A stretch of 64,000 nucleotides of DNA from positions 12,811 to 76,810 of the forward strand of contig CAZSLF010000001.1 of NCBI GenBank assembly GCA_964607805.1. The letters run 5' to 3'. The stretch comes from an uncultured Candidatus Saccharibacteria bacterium. Its GTDB lineage: Bacteria > Patescibacteriota > Minisyncoccia > Phycocordibacterales > CAIZLB01. Position 1 is the first letter of the stretch; each line of letters starts with the position of its first letter. Both the position numbers and the translations under genes were made by a program. Below are positions 3,293 to 12,395 of this stretch, in pieces. The notes beneath the pieces are model-generated. The model was not told the DNA's origin. It ran no database searches and saw only the letters and a list, made by a program, of their open reading frames with translations.

Positions 3293-3394
3293 ATAACCGA
3301 CTAAGTAGGCAAATCGGAGCAATTAGCTTTCGAATAACCCACCGGCCTCGGAACGGAAGCTATCCTAACATTTTTTTAAGCCACTGAAAAGGCT

Positions 3395-4087
3395 TTAAAT
3401 TTTAGTAAGTGAACCTCCTTCAAACTTAACTTTTATTGTTGATTCTGTATTCCACTCTGAATTGTCGAGGAAATTCATTCCAAAAAGAGTAATTATATTA
3501 TTACTGATTGAAGCGCTTTTAATTGTTGTGCGTAGGCCATTTCCAGCATAGAAATTATTGTTTGGCATAACAAGCGTAGCTTTTCCACTGGCTGAATTTA
3601 TTACAACATCCAAATTATATGAGCAATTGGGATCACAATATGTAGTTTCAAGAATTGCGTCCTGCAAACCGTCGCTATTCAAATCACCTCGAGCTAAAAC
3701 TTTTGCAGTTTGATATGTTCCTGATTTGTTTGATGCTTGCTTATTGCTAAAATTACCAGTACTTACCAATCTCATAGCCTGGTTAGCCTCAAGATTGGAA
3801 TTAAAAGCCTCGATAATTTTACTATCAACCATAACTCCAGCTGTAACAATTGTTTTATTTGCCGGAGAGGCTGGTTCGGTAGCTAATTTCGTAGAATCTA
3901 TTTTAGCGTCAACAACCTTGGAATTTGTAGAAGATGAATTTAATGTTGTAGTAGATGCGTTTGAATTTTCTTCTACACTATTATCAATATTAATATTAGC
4001 TGCACCTCTTGAATTAACTGCGAAGATAGTACCCACAACTAGCAGCAAGAACACTATTACTAATATAATTATATTTTGTTTTTTCAT
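3395..4087 (-). CDS. Secreted or membrane-anchored hypothetical protein
   Basis: 230-aa ORF. N-terminal hydrophobic anchor MKKQNIIILVIVFLLLVVGTIFAV and a Ser/Thr/Asn-rich linker. It carries a DxNxDGxxD-like segment (GDLNSDGLQDA). Confidence 0.7.
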   Translation of the reverse strand: MKKQNIIILVIVFLLLVVGTIFAVNSRGAANINIDNSVEENSNASTTTLNSSSTNSKVVDAKIDSTKLATEPASPANKTIVTAGVMVDSKIIEAFNSNLEANQAMRLVSTGNFSNKQASNKSGTYQTAKVLARGDLNSDGLQDAILETTYCDPNCSYNLDVVINSASGKATLVMPNNNFYAGNGLRTTIKSASISNNIITLFGMNFLDNSEWNTESTIKVKFEGGSLTKI

Positions 4088-4118: not shown

Positions 4119-7100
4119 TTATCGCACTTTTGAGGTTTTTGGTTTTGAATTTGTCTTGACTACATCAAGGTTGTCAATATTGCTGTCTGAGTCATTGTCA
4201 ATATTATTTTCATCTTCACTTGGATTATTTGTTGCACCAGAGTTTGCGCCAATATTTTGGTTTCCACTAGCGTTGCCGTTGCCATGACTAATTAACTTTT
4301 TACCTTTCTTAACTTCGAAAATAAATTCAACTGGACTCTGAGATCCACCCTCTCGAGAGTAGCTAGCTCGAAGATCTGCAAATGTATTAACGCCAAATTC
4401 CATAGACTTGATAGGTGACTTAATTTTGCCAGAATTTTCGGCTGATGATTTGTCGCCTTTTCCATCGGAACCCTTACCCTCCTTTCCATTCTTCCCTTCC
4501 TTTCCGTTTTTCTTCACGCTAACAGAAACTGTCCCACCCTTAAGAACTCCTTCAGAAATTATGAGGGATGCCATCGGTGTCAAAATTTTGTTTTGAATCA
4601 AACGCTTGAGAGGACGTGCACCATAGTGAGGATCGTATCCTTCCTTCGCAAGATATGTAAGCACGTCTTCAGAAAGTTCAAGTGTAATTTCTTTTTCACT
4701 AAGTCTTGCTCGAACTTTTTGCAACTCAATATCAACAATATTTCTAATTGCTTCAGGACTTAGGATATCAAAGAGAACAATTTCATCGATTCGGTTCAAG
4801 AATTCAGGACGGAAATGATCTCGCAAAGCCTCCATAACTTTCTGCTTTGAGTTTTCATAGTTTTCTTTGTCGCGAGCGTTGCCATCTACACCCTTCAACT
4901 CATCTGCATCGGCGCCGACATTAGCATTGAAGCCAATTGATTGCATACGATCGATAAATTGTGCACCAATATTAGAAGTCATTATGATAATGGTGTTCTT
5001 GAAATTAATTGTTCGTCCCTTTGAATCTGTAAGACGACCGTTGTCCAAAACCTGAAGAAGGATATTGAAAATCTCCGGATGAGCTTTCTCAATTTCATCG
5101 AAAAGAATTACTGAATATGGTCTATGTTTTACAGTTTCAGTTAGAGATCCGCTGTCCTCATGGCCAACATATCCTGGTGGGGCACCAATTATCTTAGATA
5201 CTGCATGTTTTTCCATATACTCAGACATATCTACACGAATTAGTGCCTTCTCATCGTCGAACATGAATTTCGCAAGAGATTTTGTAAGCTCAGTTTTTCC
5301 AACTCCAGTTGGTCCAAGGAATATGAAAGATCCGATTGGTCTATTTGGATCGTTAATACCAGCACGTGATCGCTTAATTGTATCTGCAACTTTAGCAACT
5401 GCAGCATCTTGTCCAAGAATTGATTTCTTTAGATCTTCTTCAATTCGTGCCAACTTCTGAACCTCTTCTTCGAGCATCCGAGTAACTGGAATTCCAGTCC
5501 ATCGCGCAACAATTGTTGCAATATCATGCTCTGTAATTTCTTCTTTCAAAATTCTTCTTGAACTTTGTAGTTTTTTAAGTCTCTTTGTTTTGTTTTCCAA
5601 ATCTTTTTCAAGAGCAGGCAATTTTACATATCGAATTTCCGCAGCTTTTGATAAATCGGCATGTGCCTCCGCCCGATCTGCATCTAATCGCAAAGTCTCT
5701 AATTGCTTTTTGATATTTTTAATATCTGAAAGAGTTTCCTTTTCATTTATCCACTTAGCTTCTACTTCTGCGGTCTTCTGCTTAAGATCTGCAATTTGAG
5801 TCTCGATTTCTTTAATTCGAGTCTTTGTATTTTTATTTGTCTCAGACTCTTTCTTAAGCGCTTCACGCTCAATTTCAAGACGCATAACTTTTCGATGTAC
5901 ATCTTCAAGCTCTGGTGGTTTGTTTTCAAGTGCAATTTTAAGAGAAGATGCTGCTTCGTCGATCAAGTCCACTGCCTTATCTGGCAAAAATCTATCGCTA
6001 ATATATCGACTAGACAAAGAAACCGCTGCAATTATCGCATCGTCTGTAATTCGAACACCGTGATATAGCTCATATTTTTCTTTAAGTCCTCGCAAAATTG
6101 CTACAGCATCTTCAGTTGAAGGTTCTTGAACGTATACTGGTTGAAATCGTCGCTGTAGCGCTGGATCCTTTTCAATATGTTTCTGATATTCCTTTAGAGT
6201 TGTTGCACCAATTGCACGTAACTCGCCACGGGCTAACGCAGGCTTTAGCATATTTGAAGCATCGAGTGATCCTTCTGCAGCACCAGCACCTACAATTGTA
6301 TGAATTTCATCGATAAATAGAATAACTTTACCATCCGACTTCTCAATTTCTTTTAAAATATTCTTCAAACGCTCCTCAAATTCTCCACGATATTTAGTTC
6401 CAGCAATTAAAATTCCAAGATCGAGAGAAACAAGCTCTTTTTCTTTAAGAGATTCAGGAATATCACCCATTGCAATACGATTCGCCAATCCTTCTGCAAT
6501 TGCAGTCTTTCCAACACCTGCTTCACCAATTAATATTGGATTATTTTTAGTTCTTCGAGAAAGAATCTGAATTACACGATTAATTTCTGAATCACGACCG
6601 ATAACAGGATCTAATTTATTTTCACGAGCAAGAGCAGTAAGATTGCGAGTATATTTGACAATGGCCTTCATCTTTTTACTCCCCGTATTTTCAGCAGTTG
6701 GCTTTGCCGCTTTCAATTCAGAAATAGTTTCAGCAATTGCGCCCCGCTCCAATTTAAATTTTTGAGATAAAAGCTCACGCCCCGAGCTCGCAACGTCAAA
6801 GAATGCCAAGAACATATGTTCCACTGATACAAAATCATCTTTCAAAGTAGCCGCAACACGCGCCGATGTTTCAATAATCTGAGCAAGCTCAGGTGTAAGA
6901 TATAACTGGTATGAAGGTGACAAAGTCTGTCCGCCTTCACCTGTCTCAATAGCCTCCAAAACAGTGTCTGTGAGTAAAATAGTATCCACCTCAAGCTTAT
7001 CAAGCACAGAAAGCACCAAACTATCCTCCTGAACTAGCAAAGCAGTCAAAAGATGCAGAGGATTGACGTTGTTCTGTCCCCTTTCTATGGCTAATTCATG

Positions 7101-7154
7101 GGCTTTTTTAATCGCTTCTTTAGCTTTTGTCGTAAAATGGCTTAGTGGTGGCAT
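4119..7154 (-). CDS. clpB: ATP-dependent chaperone ClpB with a long low-complexity C-terminal extension
   Basis: Clp N-domain, NBD1 Walker A GEAGVGKT and Walker B ILFIDEIH, a long coiled-coil middle domain, NBD2 GPTGVGKT / [10 protein letters not shown], and sensor-2 GARPLKR. At 1011 aa it is about 150 aa longer than typical ClpB. Confidence 0.95.
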
Positions 7155-7197
7155 AATTCGATTATAGCAGATATCAGAGGTTATGGAATATCTAGCA

Positions 7198-7234
7198 AGT
7201 AAAAAGACCCGAGCGCTTAAAGCTACTCGGGTCT
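7198..7234 (-). terminator. Rho-independent terminator (minus sense; weaker on plus)
   Basis: agacccgag (7205-7213) / ctcgggtct (7226-7234). The minus-sense read is followed by UUUUU (complement of 7201-7205). Confidence 0.7.
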
Positions 7235-7244
7235 TGTTTGAAAA

Positions 7245-7813
7245 TACACGGTCCCCGGCGGTGGGGACACGTTTATAGATGGAAATCCGACGATAGGTTA
7301 CGTAACTATCATAGGCGGATGATCTGCTCTAGTGTCAGACCGATGACTTTAGGCTTCGTCAGTAGGTTCGAATGTTTCTACCCAGACCTCGCTTCAGTCA
7401 TACTCCCAAATGTTATTTCAGCATGGCGGTCAAGCCTTGCTGTTGATAATTGAGGTTGTCTCCTCATTGATGGCCGCGACTTGCGTTTAAGCCATTCATC
7501 GATTTTGTCTCTGAAGACTAAACAGGGTGAATCAGCCTATTCTCCCTGTCACTTCAGCAGACTGAACACGTCATATGATGGGTTTTGGGACCACATAGAG
7601 GACATCCGCCTTGTTACTGTCGATGGGAGCTACTTTGGCTTGCGCCATTTACGCATTCCGCGTTCAATTTGCCCCTCAAAATCCCCTAGAAGCTATATTT
7701 ATAGCCCTGCATTATTGCAGATTAGAAACTTTGAGGGACAAACTGAACATTTAAAGAACTTATGTCGAATACTGTACACTCTTTCCAGTATTAGTCAAGC
7801 ACGTCTCACCACC
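7245..7813 (-). ncRNA. Putative large structured non-coding RNA (~570 nt), class unknown
   Basis: No credible ORF, and GC is higher than in the flanks. Terminal inverted repeat 7260-7271 versus 7802-7813 (10/12). Nested helices: 7671-7680/7730-7739 enclosing perfect hairpins 7692-7705 and 7707-7720; 7511-7527/7544-7557; and 7286-7290/7316-7320 enclosing 7293-7297/7306-7310. Two hairpin plus U-run terminators read on the minus strand at its low-coordinate end. Strand is inferred. Confidence 0.55.
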
Positions 7814-7816
7814 TAA

Positions 7817-10039
7817 TTACTTATTACCAGAAGATTGTTCGAGCACGGCCTCACTCACCTTCTCCGCAATATTCCCTATATCCACCGTCGTAGTAAATCG
7901 TCCAAGTGAAATTCGAAGAGAACTCAACGCACAATTTGATCTTCCAAGAGCTTCGATAACATAAGAAGATGCATCTTCGTTCGTAGCGCGACAACTTGTA
8001 ACAGATGAAAGTTCAATTCCTAAAACATCGAGACGTAAAACTAGGAACTCTGCGTCAATTCCTGGGAAACAAATATTTAAATTATTAGGAAGTCTTTCTT
8101 CGAGAGTTCCATTTACCTTAATTCCTAAAACTTTATCTTGCAATTTACTCATAAGCATCTCAAGCAAAGTATCGCGGAACTCCAAAAGTTTTGCTGACTG
8201 ATCTTCCCTTTCGTTATGAGCTATATCGAGAGCATGCTTAAGACCAATAATTGCAGGGATATTTTCAGTTCCTGGCCGAAGACTACTTTCTTGATTGCCA
8301 CCTAGGAAAATTGGTGACAAATGAACATGTCGGCGTTTTACAAGCGCACCAACACCTCGTGGACCATAGACTTTTCCTCCATCAATAGTCATAAGATCAA
8401 TATTCAAAGTCATAATACGCATATCCTCATAAAGTGCTGCCTGACAAGCGTCTGTGTGGATATATGGATATCCAGTTCCCTCTCTTCCAAGACTTTTCTT
8501 AAAATGCCGCACTTCTCGCGCAATTTCTTTTAGCGGCTGAACGGTTCCAATTTCATTGTTCGCATAAATAATTGATATAAGAACAGTTTCTTCTCGCAAA
8601 ACTTTTTTAATATCTTTTGGATCTACTAGCCCATCTTCATTTACAGGAATAAAAGAAACATCTATACCTTTATTTATAAAATCAAGAGCGATTTCAATTA
8701 TAGAAGGATGTTCAATTGTAGAAATGATAAAGTGCGGACGAACTTTTTGTGGCTTATCGCCATTTTTCAATTTCTTTTCTAAAAGTTTATCACCTTCTGT
8801 CGTGCTACCTCTATCCACAAAACCTTTGAGAATCCCCTGAAAGACTAGATTATTTGTTTCAGTTCCTCCGGATGTGAAGAAAATTTCATTTTTATTTGCT
8901 CCGAAAAAAGCGGCCACTGACATGCGCGCATCCTCAAGAGCCTTTTTGGCCTGCACACCCTTCTTATATAGAGAAGATGGATTTGCCGGGAACTGATCCA
9001 TGGCCTCAAACATCACTTTTTTTACTCGAGGATCGATTGGAGTAAGTGAAGCATAGTCGGCGTATACGGGAGAGCTTAAGGGTTGGCCTGCAGTATTTGG
9101 TGCCAGCTGCGCTGTTGGAGTCGAAGTTTTAGTTGAAGGGAGAATGACAGAAGCTGGCGACACAGCTCCAGCAACTCTAGGAAAACTTTCCAAAATTTTT
9201 GGTTTTATGGCAGCGGCTGCAACGGCGGCTTCTGAAATTGCAGGCGGAACATCTTTGTCAAAATCCTCAGCAAACTTTTCTTCATCATGATGCAAATCCT
9301 GCAAATTTTTCTTGCGTCCTCGTCGAAAAGCTTCAAGTGCTGATTTAAAAATGTTTTTTGATTCTGTTGCTGGCGAGGGTTTTGGATCTTCTTTATGTTC
9401 GGGTAGCGCATTGTCAAATTCCTGATAATCAAATAAAACTGAATTTTCGTCTCTCTTTTCTTCATTTTCTAAATGAGACTCAGTCGCAATTAGAATCTCG
9501 TCTAACTTCTGAGCTAAATTTACTTTTTCTTCATCTTTTTCAGATTTCTCTGGAATTTCTGTCTCAATTTCCTTGACCTCCGCAATTTCTACTACACTTT
9601 CTTCAATTATTTTATTATGAATTTCGGTTTTTTCTGTTTTAGTTTGTTCTTCATTATCATCACCTACCTGAGCACTATTTTTAACACCTTTCAGTTTTTC
9701 TGAAAGTGAAGGTCGCCTATTGATATTCTTGTTTTCGCTTTTGTTTTCTCCGTCAAAACCTGTACTGGCGATCGCACCTTTCGAAAAACTTTTGCCAATA
9801 CCATTACTTAGACCATTACTCAAACCTTTACTAGTTTCAACAATTTTAGAATTTATTTGAGAAAATGAAGTTGTCAGAGAAGACTTAGCTTTTTCAGTTG
9901 CGCCTGTCACTTTCTTTTGAACTTTCTCCACAGAATTTCGAAAAGACTTAAAAGACTTCGATTCTTCCTTATCAATTGATTTTTTAAGTGCCCCAACAAT
10001 ATTTGAGGTCTTTTTAAGAAAATTTGAATCAAATTTCAT
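7817..10039 (-). CDS. Cysteine desulfurase (class V aminotransferase, IscS/NifS-like) with ~330-aa low-complexity N-terminal extension
   Basis: C-terminal ~400 aa carry the family pattern: YADYASLTPIDPRV, FTSGGTETNNLV, STIEHPSI, HTDACQA, GGNQESSLRPGTENIPAIIGL, and the active-site Cys region SSVTSCRA. Start taken at MKFDSNF (10039). The alternative upstream ATG at 10087 lies in an atypically GC-rich stretch. Confidence 0.85.
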   Translation of the reverse strand: MKFDSNFLKKTSNIVGALKKSIDKEESKSFKSFRNSVEKVQKKVTGATEKAKSSLTTSFSQINSKIVETSKGLSNGLSNGIGKSFSKGAIASTGFDGENKSENKNINRRPSLSEKLKGVKNSAQVGDDNEEQTKTEKTEIHNKIIEESVVEIAEVKEIETEIPEKSEKDEEKVNLAQKLDEILIATESHLENEEKRDENSVLFDYQEFDNALPEHKEDPKPSPATESKNIFKSALEAFRRGRKKNLQDLHHDEEKFAEDFDKDVPPAISEAAVAAAAIKPKILESFPRVAGAVSPASVILPSTKTSTPTAQLAPNTAGQPLSSPVYADYASLTPIDPRVKKVMFEAMDQFPANPSSLYKKGVQAKKALEDARMSVAAFFGANKNEIFFTSGGTETNNLVFQGILKGFVDRGSTTEGDKLLEKKLKNGDKPQKVRPHFIISTIEHPSIIEIALDFINKGIDVSFIPVNEDGLVDPKDIKKVLREETVLISIIYANNEIGTVQPLKEIAREVRHFKKSLGREGTGYPYIHTDACQAALYEDMRIMTLNIDLMTIDGGKVYGPRGVGALVKRRHVHLSPIFLGGNQESSLRPGTENIPAIIGLKHALDIAHNEREDQSAKLLEFRDTLLEMLMSKLQDKVLGIKVNGTLEERLPNNLNICFPGIDAEFLVLRLDVLGIELSSVTSCRATNEDASSYVIEALGRSNCALSSLRISLGRFTTTVDIGNIAEKVSEAVLEQSSGNK

Positions 10040-10150
10040 GTGGGTGTGGGGGTGGTCTTGCCGGCGCTTTGGGCGGGCCTCGGGCATAAATTAGTGCCTA
10101 GGCTATGGCGCCACTATACAAAAAAAAGAGCAATCTGTATACTTTGGAGC

Positions 10151-10760: not shown

Positions 10761-12395
10761 ATGGCGTCATCCTCTGTTAAAACTTCACCCAAAAAACCTT
10801 TATCTGAGCCTTCGGATGCGGTTTCTGCACATCAGGGTGAAGGTCCTCGTGCACCAGTTGTTGTAGTTATGGGTCATATTGACCATGGAAAATCGACTCT
10901 TCTAGATTATATTCGAAGTACAAATATTGTAGATCGTGAAGTAGGTGGAATTACTCAACGTATGTCTGCATATGAAGTCGTGCATGATCAGGAAGGCATA
11001 AAAAAGCATATAACTTTTCTTGACACGCCAGGACATGAAAGTTTCAACGCTATGCGAGCTCGTGGTGCACTTGCTGCTGATATTGCAATTCTAATTGTTT
11101 CTGCTGAAGATGGTGTTAAGCCTCAAACTTTGGATGCATTCAATGCAATTAAAGTAGCTCGTCTTCCCTACATAGTTGGAATTAGTAAAATCGACAAACC
11201 AAACGCTTCAGTTGATCGTGTAAAACTTTCTCTGGCTGAAAATGAAATTTATGTTGAAGGATATGGTGGAGATATTCCATTTGTTCCCTTTTCAGGAAAA
11301 TCAGGTGAAGGTATAAACGATCTTTTAGACATGATTCTTTTAACTTCAGAAGTTGAAGGGTTCTCTGCAAATCCTGCTGAAGCCGCTGAGTGTATGGTTA
11401 TTGAATCTAATCAGGACAAGATTCGTGGTATTTCCGCTACTTTGATTATTAAAAATGGAACTCTCAACACTGGCGATGTTCTAGTTTCAGGAAGTGCAAT
11501 CTCCACAGTTCGAATTCTTGAGAATTTCCTTGGCAAACCAATTAAATCCGCTGGTCCGTCTACGCCGGTTAGAGTTGTTGGGTGGTCGGAGGCACCTGAA
11601 GTTGGAGGTCTTTGCTTTACATTCAAGAACAAGAAGGAAGCTGAAGAATTTGTATTAACTGAAAAAAATAGAATTGCTGAAGAAAGTTTGAAGAGTAGAA
11701 GTGTAAATGGTAACGGCACTAACGGCGGCAATGGTATGGGCGGAGGCACTAATATGGGAGGTATTGCAAAAGATGAGAATGGCGAAGAGATAGCCATTGT
11801 CCCAATTGTTCTAAAAGGAGATACAAATGGAACTCTTGAAGCAGTAAAATATGAAATTCAAAAACTAAAAATTGAACGTGTAATTTTGAAAACTGTTCAA
11901 GCTAGTGTTGGTGATATTAGTGAAAACGATGTAAAGCTTGCCTCAGGAAAAGCCGGAACAATAATTGTTGGATTTAATACAAAAGTTGATAATTCTGCAA
12001 AATCTTTAGCCCTTCGAACGGGGGTGCATATTGAAACATTTGATATCATTTACAAATTGACAGAATGGCTTGAAATTAAAGCAAAAGAATATACTCCTAA
12101 GCGACACGTCGAAGAAGAGAAAGGAACGCTTAAGGTTTTGAAAATTTTCAGTACAAATCGTGACAAACAAGTAATTGGAGGTCGTGTTGAAATCGGAACT
12201 GTTTCTCTTCACGATGAAGTAAAAATTATGCGACGCGAAAGCGAGATTGGAAAAGGACGAATCCGCGAATTGCAGCAGCAAAAAAACAAGGTTGGATCAG
12301 TGGAAGAAGGAAAAGAATGCGGACTTATGGTCGAATCAAAAATCGAATTGGCTCCTGGTGATAAATTAGTAGCATTTGAAGTTATTTTTAAGTAA
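10761..12395 (+). CDS. infB: Translation initiation factor IF-2 (short form)
   Basis: G1 [10 protein letters not shown]3 DTPGHESF, G4-like SKID; C-terminal domains. Followed by rbfA, as in many bacteria. Confidence 0.93.

Follow-up and report, generated by a model that had tools for sequence, protein, structure and literature searches.

A candidate structured noncoding RNA gene with a conserved 5′ module and a variable body between the cysteine desulfurase and clpB genes of an uncultured bacterium

Results

An intergenic gap with the signals of a free-standing RNA gene

The window analysed here is the whole of a 64,000-nucleotide (nt) stretch of DNA from an uncultured Candidatus Saccharibacteria bacterium (contig CAZSLF010000001.1), and our subject is a candidate structured noncoding RNA (ncRNA) gene, hereafter the element, in the gap between two of its housekeeping genes. 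The gap (window 7155-7816, 662 nt) separates the gene for a 756-amino-acid (aa) cysteine desulfurase (class-V aminotransferase; 7817-10087) from that for the 1011-aa ClpB (4119-7154), both on the minus strand, and it is the longest of the tRNA-free non-coding gaps in the window. An earlier note on this DNA had proposed that about 570 nt of it encode a single large ncRNA, in a region without a plausible open reading frame (ORF) and visibly GC-richer than its flanks. The GC content does stand out: it is 0.446 in the gap and 0.472 in the 3′ part of the element, which we call the body, as against 0.392 in the whole window.

A promoter scan placed a −35 box TTGACT at 7793-7798 and a −10 box TACAGT at 7771-7776 on the minus strand, with a 16-nt spacer. 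This sigma-70-type promoter (7798-7771) is aligned and conserved in the four homologous loci that we found (L002, L005, L006 and L007, described below): the −35 region reads CTTGAC(A/T)AA in all five, and the −10 box, at an equal distance from it, reads TAGAGT, TATTAT, TATTGT and TATTCT in the relatives. Judged by the position of the promoter, transcription would start at about 7763-7765. At the other end, a terminator scan gave the intrinsic terminator T1 (GUCCCCACCGCCGGGGAC then CGUGUAUUUU; 7241-7272, minus strand), a hairpin at 7268-7251 with a U-run. A second one, T2 (AAGACCCGAG...CUCGGGUCUUUUU; 7198-7238, minus strand), consists of the inverted repeat I3 (7201-7213/7226-7238, 13 nt, 92% complementary) and a U-run. 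Both minus-strand terminators read in the earlier note were thus borne out, and a GC-rich hairpin with a U-run closes the element in every homologue. The predicted transcript, with the ends that these signals suggest, runs from about 7765 to 7241 on the minus strand and is 525 nt long. By its sequence signals the element has what is expected of a free-standing small RNA (sRNA) or ncRNA gene, namely a promoter of its own, a Rho-independent terminator, an intergenic position and no ORF. The note's minus-strand transcription unit therefore appears to be a unit of its own, with a conserved promoter and terminators.

In the window only 18 nt, with no terminator, lie between the desulfurase stop codon and the −35 box, so read-through is likely, and the region can also be read as a long 3′ untranslated region (UTR) of the desulfurase mRNA. 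In L002 and L005 a terminator-like hairpin can be read in the sequence between the desulfurase stop codon and the element promoter. With desulfurase, element and clpB all on the minus strand and clpB directly next, the element might act in cis, either as such a 3′ UTR or as a 5′ leader or attenuator of clpB. We regard this as distinctly unlikely, because the element has a conserved promoter of its own, one or two strong terminators stand ahead of clpB, the same two genes occur in relatives without the element, and clpB looks leaderless and independent. In the window, clpB is preceded by a conserved extended −10 sequence, ATCTGCTATAAT (within 7154-7172, minus strand), which ends 6 nt before the ATG. 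The same sequence lies 6-11 nt before the ATG in all relatives examined, whether the element is present or not (seen in the window, L002, L005-L007, L009, L010, L132-L135 and L186); L143 has only GCTATAAT. Since the extended −10 is so near the ATG and no Shine-Dalgarno sequence precedes clpB, its mRNA appears to be leaderless across the clade.

The predicted 525-nt transcript folds with a minimum free energy of −179.9 kcal/mol (z-score −6.86), and none of 100 dinucleotide shuffles folded as well. Over positions 7190-7816, the minus strand gave −219.9 kcal/mol and the plus strand −205.4 kcal/mol. The individual helices listed in the earlier note fared unequally. The helix 7671-7680/7730-7739 is real and belongs to a 25-base-pair (bp) stem (7662-7686/7724-7748); the helix 7511-7527/7544-7557 was recovered in part, as inverted repeat I6 within a hairpin of the predicted fold; and the helices 7467-7473/7490-7497 and 7286-7290/7316-7320 have approximate counterparts, in predicted folds only. 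The proposed pairing of the two ends, 7260-7271 with 7802-7813, did not stand up. Ten of its 12 positions are complementary with no exact run above 5, which 8.5% of shuffles matched; its 5′ arm precedes the −35 box (7798-7793) and falls outside the RNA that this promoter is predicted to produce; and no homologue has an equivalent. For these reasons a switch between the end-to-end helix and the first terminator, also proposed in the note, has no basis. Its idea of a large ncRNA holds as far as the region is non-coding and strongly structured, and fails in that there is not one RNA of about 570 nt conserved throughout and closed by an end helix.

Homologous elements in a variable junction

Four distinct related contigs have kept the synteny and have a long ORF-free gap at the same place. 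Desulfurase identity to the window over the whole protein and gap length are 80% and 841 nt for L002 (with identical copies L003 and L004), 79% and 982 nt for L005 (no identical copies), 54% and 798 nt for L006 (no identical copies), and 68% and 761 nt for L007 (with the identical copy L008). By identity of the desulfurase C-terminal part (94, 85, 81 and 71%), these four carriers are the closest relatives found, in keeping with one origin of the element. In each of them the promoter recurs at its place and a terminator stands at the end; their predicted transcripts measure 526-712 nt and as a whole have folding z-scores of −4.7, −7.3, −5.9 and −9.4 (window, −6.9).

Relatives at a greater distance have different contents at this junction. 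It is only 120-220 nt long in L009, L010, L134, L135, L143, L183 and L186; in L011 it holds a gene with an NYN domain and an unknown ORF, in L132 and L133 small unknown ORFs, in L184 a 154-aa gene on the opposite strand, and, in L140 and others, a gene for a 180-320-aa protein with a hydrophobic N-terminal segment (from its sequence, likely a membrane protein). These varied contents suggest that the junction is a variable island, of which the element is one possible occupant. The element is missing from relatives at 60-68% desulfurase identity and is confined to a narrow clade; a scan of genome collections with the desulfurase gave one distant locus only. In L133, whose island carries a 156-aa ORF, the gap 3′ of the desulfurase gene contains a promoter (TTGACA-N17-TACAGT, about 3341-3372) that matches the window's RNA promoter in position and in −10 context (GTACAGTA). 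The island may have a common entry promoter irrespective of its cargo.

The presence of protein genes at the same junction raises the question of whether the element is a pseudogene or other remnant of a protein gene, be it the membrane protein or small ORFs of the relatives or a frame on the plus strand. Two plus-strand ORFs (7238-7453 and 7481-7816) share a frame and are separated by one TGA; the frame as a whole, antisense to the RNA, spans about 205 codons (window 7202-7816) with one internal stop, which by a rough, uncomputed estimate is fewer than chance would give. A coding origin is nevertheless very improbable. The plus-strand frame had no homologue among 5.8 billion proteins, and an equivalent open frame was seen in none of the homologues; the gap matched no Pfam family in any of six frames; and a tblastn comparison of 12 gap proteins of relatives with the five elements gave a best E of 0.28. 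On the minus strand, stop codons are dense in all three frames of the gap, and it is on this strand, opposite to the near-open frame, that promoter, hairpin and terminators are conserved. The interval therefore contains no plausible ORF, as the earlier note had stated, and no recognisable protein remnant, which the note had considered as an alternative.

A conserved 5′ module under constraint

Besides the promoter, conservation among the five sequences is limited to a 5′ leader with the consensus UAAGUUCUUUGA and to P1, a long hairpin; within the RNA it covers the first ~105-145 nt. The leader of the window element is ACAUAAGUUCUUUAAAU (7749-7765, minus strand) and includes a UAAGUUCUUUGA-like motif. 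In the five-way alignment TAAGT and the adjoining bases are invariant; against L007 identity is 94% across 17 nt, and against L002, with the promoter counted in, 87.5% across 48 nt. The leader is mainly unpaired in the centroid fold. P1, seen both as inverted repeat I1 and in the fold, is an 87-nt hairpin (7662-7748, minus strand) with a 25-bp stem (7748-7724/7686-7662) and two mini-hairpins at its tip. In its conserved core, UCCCUCAAAGU (7738-7728) pairs with AUUUUGAGGGG (7682-7672). The core CCCUCAAAGU/AUUUUGAGGG is nearly invariant in all five sequences, with a single exchange, C-G to U-A, in L007. The parts of the stem that lie outside and above it differ in sequence in each homologue and are paired in each.

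In a structural alignment of P1 from the five sequences, hand-fitted to the helices of each sequence so that the pair counts lean towards structure, 99.2% of cells were paired and 18 of 32 pairs were changed on both sides. Controls in which the partners were slid by 1-3 columns had 37-52% of cells paired and 1-6 pairs changed on both sides. The earlier note had let its proposal hang on conservation and covariation in relatives; a homologous element does stand at the same place, and its 5′ hairpin has compensatory changes in this hand-fitted alignment. The G-U pairs of the conserved hairpin would be A-C mismatches on the opposite strand, and since the G-U pair of the core is invariant, the structure belongs to the minus strand. 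Likewise, R1, a covariance model of leader and P1, gave the window element 89.5 bits on the minus strand versus 20.8 bits on the opposite one.

We searched for the module in the window and ~30 related loci and, with nhmmer, also in the viral loci from a first pattern scan. It was found in exactly five loci (nhmmer E 3e-17 to 6e-12; R1 57-110 bits); the 1.56 Mb covered by nhmmer and the 0.38 Mb covered by R1 contained no other match. Four-fold degenerate sites of the flanking genes are saturated for most pairs. The pattern of change indicates that the 5′ module is under constraint.

Other identities were considered for P1 and its surroundings. A small conserved ORF was rejected: the frames that run across the P1 core or past its GAGGGG encode peptides of 7-38 aa whose start, length and sequence are not conserved. 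An attC-like integron site was rejected too: the consensus of such sites is RYYYAAC...GTTRRRY, from which P1 departs at its ends, and these vary in every homologue. A loose pattern of the P1 core gave at least 120 chance matches in viral contigs, and a strict pattern gave two, both inside a phage coding sequence and unrelated.

Structured bodies of unrelated types

Downstream of P1 lies the variable body, in the window about 375 nt (7286-7661, minus strand) with a GC content of 0.47, predicted to form a multibranched domain and then the hairpin GAUAGUUACGUAACCUAUC. Across the loci the body measures ~400-540 nt, and the five loci have four unrelated types. A k-mer search of the five RNAs past P1 found no shared motif, and the window body aligned with those of L002, L005, L006 and L007 at the level of shuffles (local z −1.5 to 0.9, global z −0.6 to 0.6). 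The only body pair to align above shuffles was L002-L005 (local z 8.5, global z 5.9), although the neutral sites of these two loci are saturated (~43-50% four-fold identity). Their bodies have conserved blocks in common, among them UCUCUCGAAAA, GUGACUNGUUGG and GGGAUAAUCGAGA. A long-range helix, UCUCGA/UCGAGA, is conserved as well; it was taken from a two-sequence RNAalifold structure and is hence circular as evidence.

Window and L002 are identical at 67% of four-fold sites over the final 100 codons of the desulfurase gene and at 77% over the initial 200 of clpB. A neutral spacer would align easily at such distances, so the failure of the two bodies to align is not simple drift. Nor do the bodies hypermutate: they are identical across different samples (L002 = L003 = L004; L007 = L008) and thus stable over short times. 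These findings are most simply explained by purifying selection on at least one body type, that of L002 and L005, and by a replacement that gave the window a different, non-homologous body.

Sequence conservation ends just past P1, and the 5′ module of ~105-145 nt may be the only functional part, as a small RNA or regulatory hairpin, and the body decayed or exchanged island cargo that serves as filler. The four unrelated body types among five loci are in keeping with this, as are the junctions of other relatives, empty or with unrelated protein genes, and the body of L005, which alone folds scarcely better than shuffles (z −1.65). We hold the filler explanation, the chief rival to a functional full-length RNA, to be doubtful, though it retains real weight. 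Empty junctions measure ~120-220 nt, and 400-540 nt of junk kept in five lineages would be unexpected. The bodies, though non-homologous, all have raised GC, 8-11 points over the locus in four of five (0.47-0.49 versus 0.38-0.41; in L006, 0.42 versus 0.40), and taken alone they have folding z-scores of −3.5 (window), −3.2, −1.65 (L005), −3.1 and −7.5, that is, about −3 to −7.5 apart from L005. The blocks common to L002 and L005 have been kept at saturated neutral divergence, P1 has no terminator directly behind it, and no protein remnant was detectable by tblastn, Pfam or protein search.

A conserved leader and promoter followed by a body that is wholly different in a close relative, with many hairpins, also recalls the guide-RNA array of a CRISPR-like or TIGR-like system, in which strain-specific guide units would account for so variable a body. 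TIGR-Tas systems are present in the candidate phyla radiation (CPR), and one type of their arrays is made of stem-loops without direct repeats (PMC12045711). In the window RNA (7241-7765, minus strand) CUGA occurs 6 times versus 1.9 expected (p ~0.01), and two RUGA-N13-CUGA spacings are reminiscent of box C/D guides. Neither the CUGA enrichment nor an RUGA-N8-14-CUGA spacing is present in L002, L005, L006 or L007. Moreover, Tandem Repeats Finder (minimum score 30) found no tandem repeats, the hairpins are irregular in size and not modular, neither the window nor its relatives have a gene for a Nop-domain protein, Cas protein or other nuclease beside the element, and the bodies of L002 and L005, unlike spacers, are conserved at saturated divergence. 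A guide array is thus a very remote explanation.

No match to known RNA families or mobile elements

The size of the element is within the range of several known RNAs, and universal RNAs are frequently aberrant in CPR bacteria, so a divergent member of a known family was considered: RNase P RNA, tmRNA, 6S RNA, signal recognition particle RNA, a group I or II intron, OLE, ROOL, GOLLD, HEARO or raiA. When the window was compared with the 4227 families of Rfam 15 by cmscan, only tRNAs passed the gathering thresholds; permissive runs (to E 10 for the window and E 5 for the four homologous loci) added only chance matches to microRNA-like hairpins. ARAGORN found 8 tRNAs and no tmRNA in the window, so that tmRNA is negative by both methods. 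RNase P RNA of types A and B had no covariance-model match at gathering or permissive thresholds (E ≤10 in the window, ≤5 in the four loci), and OLE, ROOL, GOLLD, HEARO and raiA had none even at E 5-10; those five RNAs are, in addition, conserved over their whole length in many taxa, and here only the 5′ ~105-145 nt are conserved. Group I and II introns would be recognised by their catalytic core (domain V and others) and would be inserted in a host gene or behind a terminator; there was no match to Intron_gpI, Intron_gpII or group-II-D1D4, and the element has its own promoter. The earlier note, which recognised no signature of RNase P, tmRNA, group II introns or the OLE, ROOL and GOLLD RNAs, was right in this. 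Because the element is also missing from close relatives that must retain universal RNAs, membership of a known family is hardly credible.

A mobile element or repeat was rejected as well. The window and 184 fetched loci contain no further copy of any part of the element, and blastn against phage and plasmid collections returned nothing.

Neighbouring genes

The gene order RbfA, IF-2, DUF4446, desulfurase, ClpB is also found on CPR-type metagenome contigs, and the best-named relative of the desulfurase comes from a Candidatus Parcubacteria metagenome-assembled genome. The neighbours of the element are cysteine desulfurase, ClpB, DUF4446, IF-2, RbfA, a 230-aa protein and YbjQ. The gene for the 230-aa protein (window 3395-4087, minus strand) lies immediately downstream of clpB and has no Pfam match; it is kept in L002 and missing in L006, where ribosomal protein L33 is found instead. 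The N-terminal ~340 aa of the desulfurase (window 9070-10087, minus strand) form a long low-complexity extension rich in Lys, Glu and Ser, also without a Pfam match, and its length differs widely between relatives, whose total protein measures 460-810 aa. In L010, which has no RNA element, a bAvd-like gene (weak Pfam match) followed by a reverse transcriptase (RVT_1) lies ~1.5 kb downstream of clpB (10947-11464), a pair resembling a diversity-generating retroelement.

Discussion

Our preferred reading, to which we give a probability of roughly one half, is that the gap carries a lineage-restricted, independently transcribed, structured ncRNA gene on the minus strand, with a predicted transcript of ~525 nt, that belongs to no described RNA family. 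Its conserved 5′ module would consist of the promoter, a short single-stranded leader with the UAAGUUCUUUGA-like motif, and the irregular hairpin P1 with its invariant core. Leader and P1 together could be the recognition part of the RNA, either as a handle for protein binding or as a seed for base pairing. The 3′ body, GC-rich, strongly folded, 400-540 nt long and ending in intrinsic terminators, would provide stability, scaffold or specificity; when the window is compared with its closest relative, this body has apparently been exchanged and has not drifted. We infer from sequence that the RNA is transcribed with these ends, that the window body is functional, and what role the RNA might have.

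Several observations weigh against this reading. The body lacks conservation across lineages, and a function for the window body would rest on its GC content, its z-score and the analogy with L002 and L005, of which the L005 body alone reaches a z-score of only −1.65. The junction island holds unrelated cargo in other relatives, and decay of such cargo could have left the body. The desulfurase gene of the window lacks a terminator, and the region could equally be read as its 3′ UTR. No target or partner was found: sequences complementary to the leader (17 versus 13.4 expected) show no enrichment in the window, a result that carries little information. The five distinct sequences that carry the element are few and all come from metagenome assemblies, and the pair counts of P1 come from an alignment that favours structure.

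CPR (Patescibacteria) genomes are tiny and tightly packed. A GC-enriched, folded unit of 0.5-0.7 kb that is kept between housekeeping genes in such genomes is unlikely to be idle. A more specific version of our preferred reading is that the element is an RNA cassette, in which a fixed 5′ handle is combined with interchangeable, lineage-specific structured cargo of 400-540 nt that is swapped by recombination between close CPR populations. Such a cassette might be used, for instance, for strain-specific recognition in conflicts between host and symbiont or between phage and bacterium. We consider this version rather unlikely, and we know of no described ncRNA family with such an arrangement of fixed handle and swapped cargo.

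If our preferred reading is correct, a new RNA family would be added, and with it an unusual mode of evolution, in which a conserved 5′ module is kept and the body is replaced between genomes whose flanks are 67-77% identical at neutral sites. If the body is filler, the result shrinks to an ordinary clade-specific sRNA of ~100 nt. A literature search found no study of noncoding RNAs in CPR or Patescibacteria.

The element can be compared with three kinds of known RNA. The enterobacterial sRNAs RybB and OmrA/OmrB act in trans by base pairing and are conserved at the 5′ end and variable in the rest. Like them, the element is free-standing between unrelated genes, has its peak of conservation at an apparently single-stranded 5′ end and would terminate in a Rho-independent manner. 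It differs in being 5-7 times longer, in having an 87-nt hairpin within its conserved part, and in that no target complementary to the leader was found in the window.

In TIGR guide arrays (PMC12045711), pairs of short repeats, or stems, form tandem units whose spacers measure 8-12 nt. The stem-loop arrays of TIGR-Tas share with the element a non-coding, hairpin-rich sequence without long direct repeats, an end at a terminator and contents that vary between strains. Unlike those arrays, the element has no neighbouring gene for a Nop-domain (Tas) protein, no repeated units and no box C/D-like periodicity common to the homologues, and one of its body types is conserved between diverged genomes.

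The orphan RNAs of the OLE, ROOL and GOLLD type (PMC12286853) are similar to the element in their length of several hundred nt, the lack of an ORF, the many predicted helices, a GC content above that of an AT-rich genome, and a promoter and terminator of their own, which in the element are predicted. These are also the features sought by screens of long intergenic regions with high GC content. Those RNAs are conserved over their full length in many genera, whereas the element is conserved in its first ~105-145 nt only and in five CPR loci. An orphan structured bacterial ncRNA is thus a known kind of RNA, and a conserved handle with a replaced body is an unusual pattern for one.

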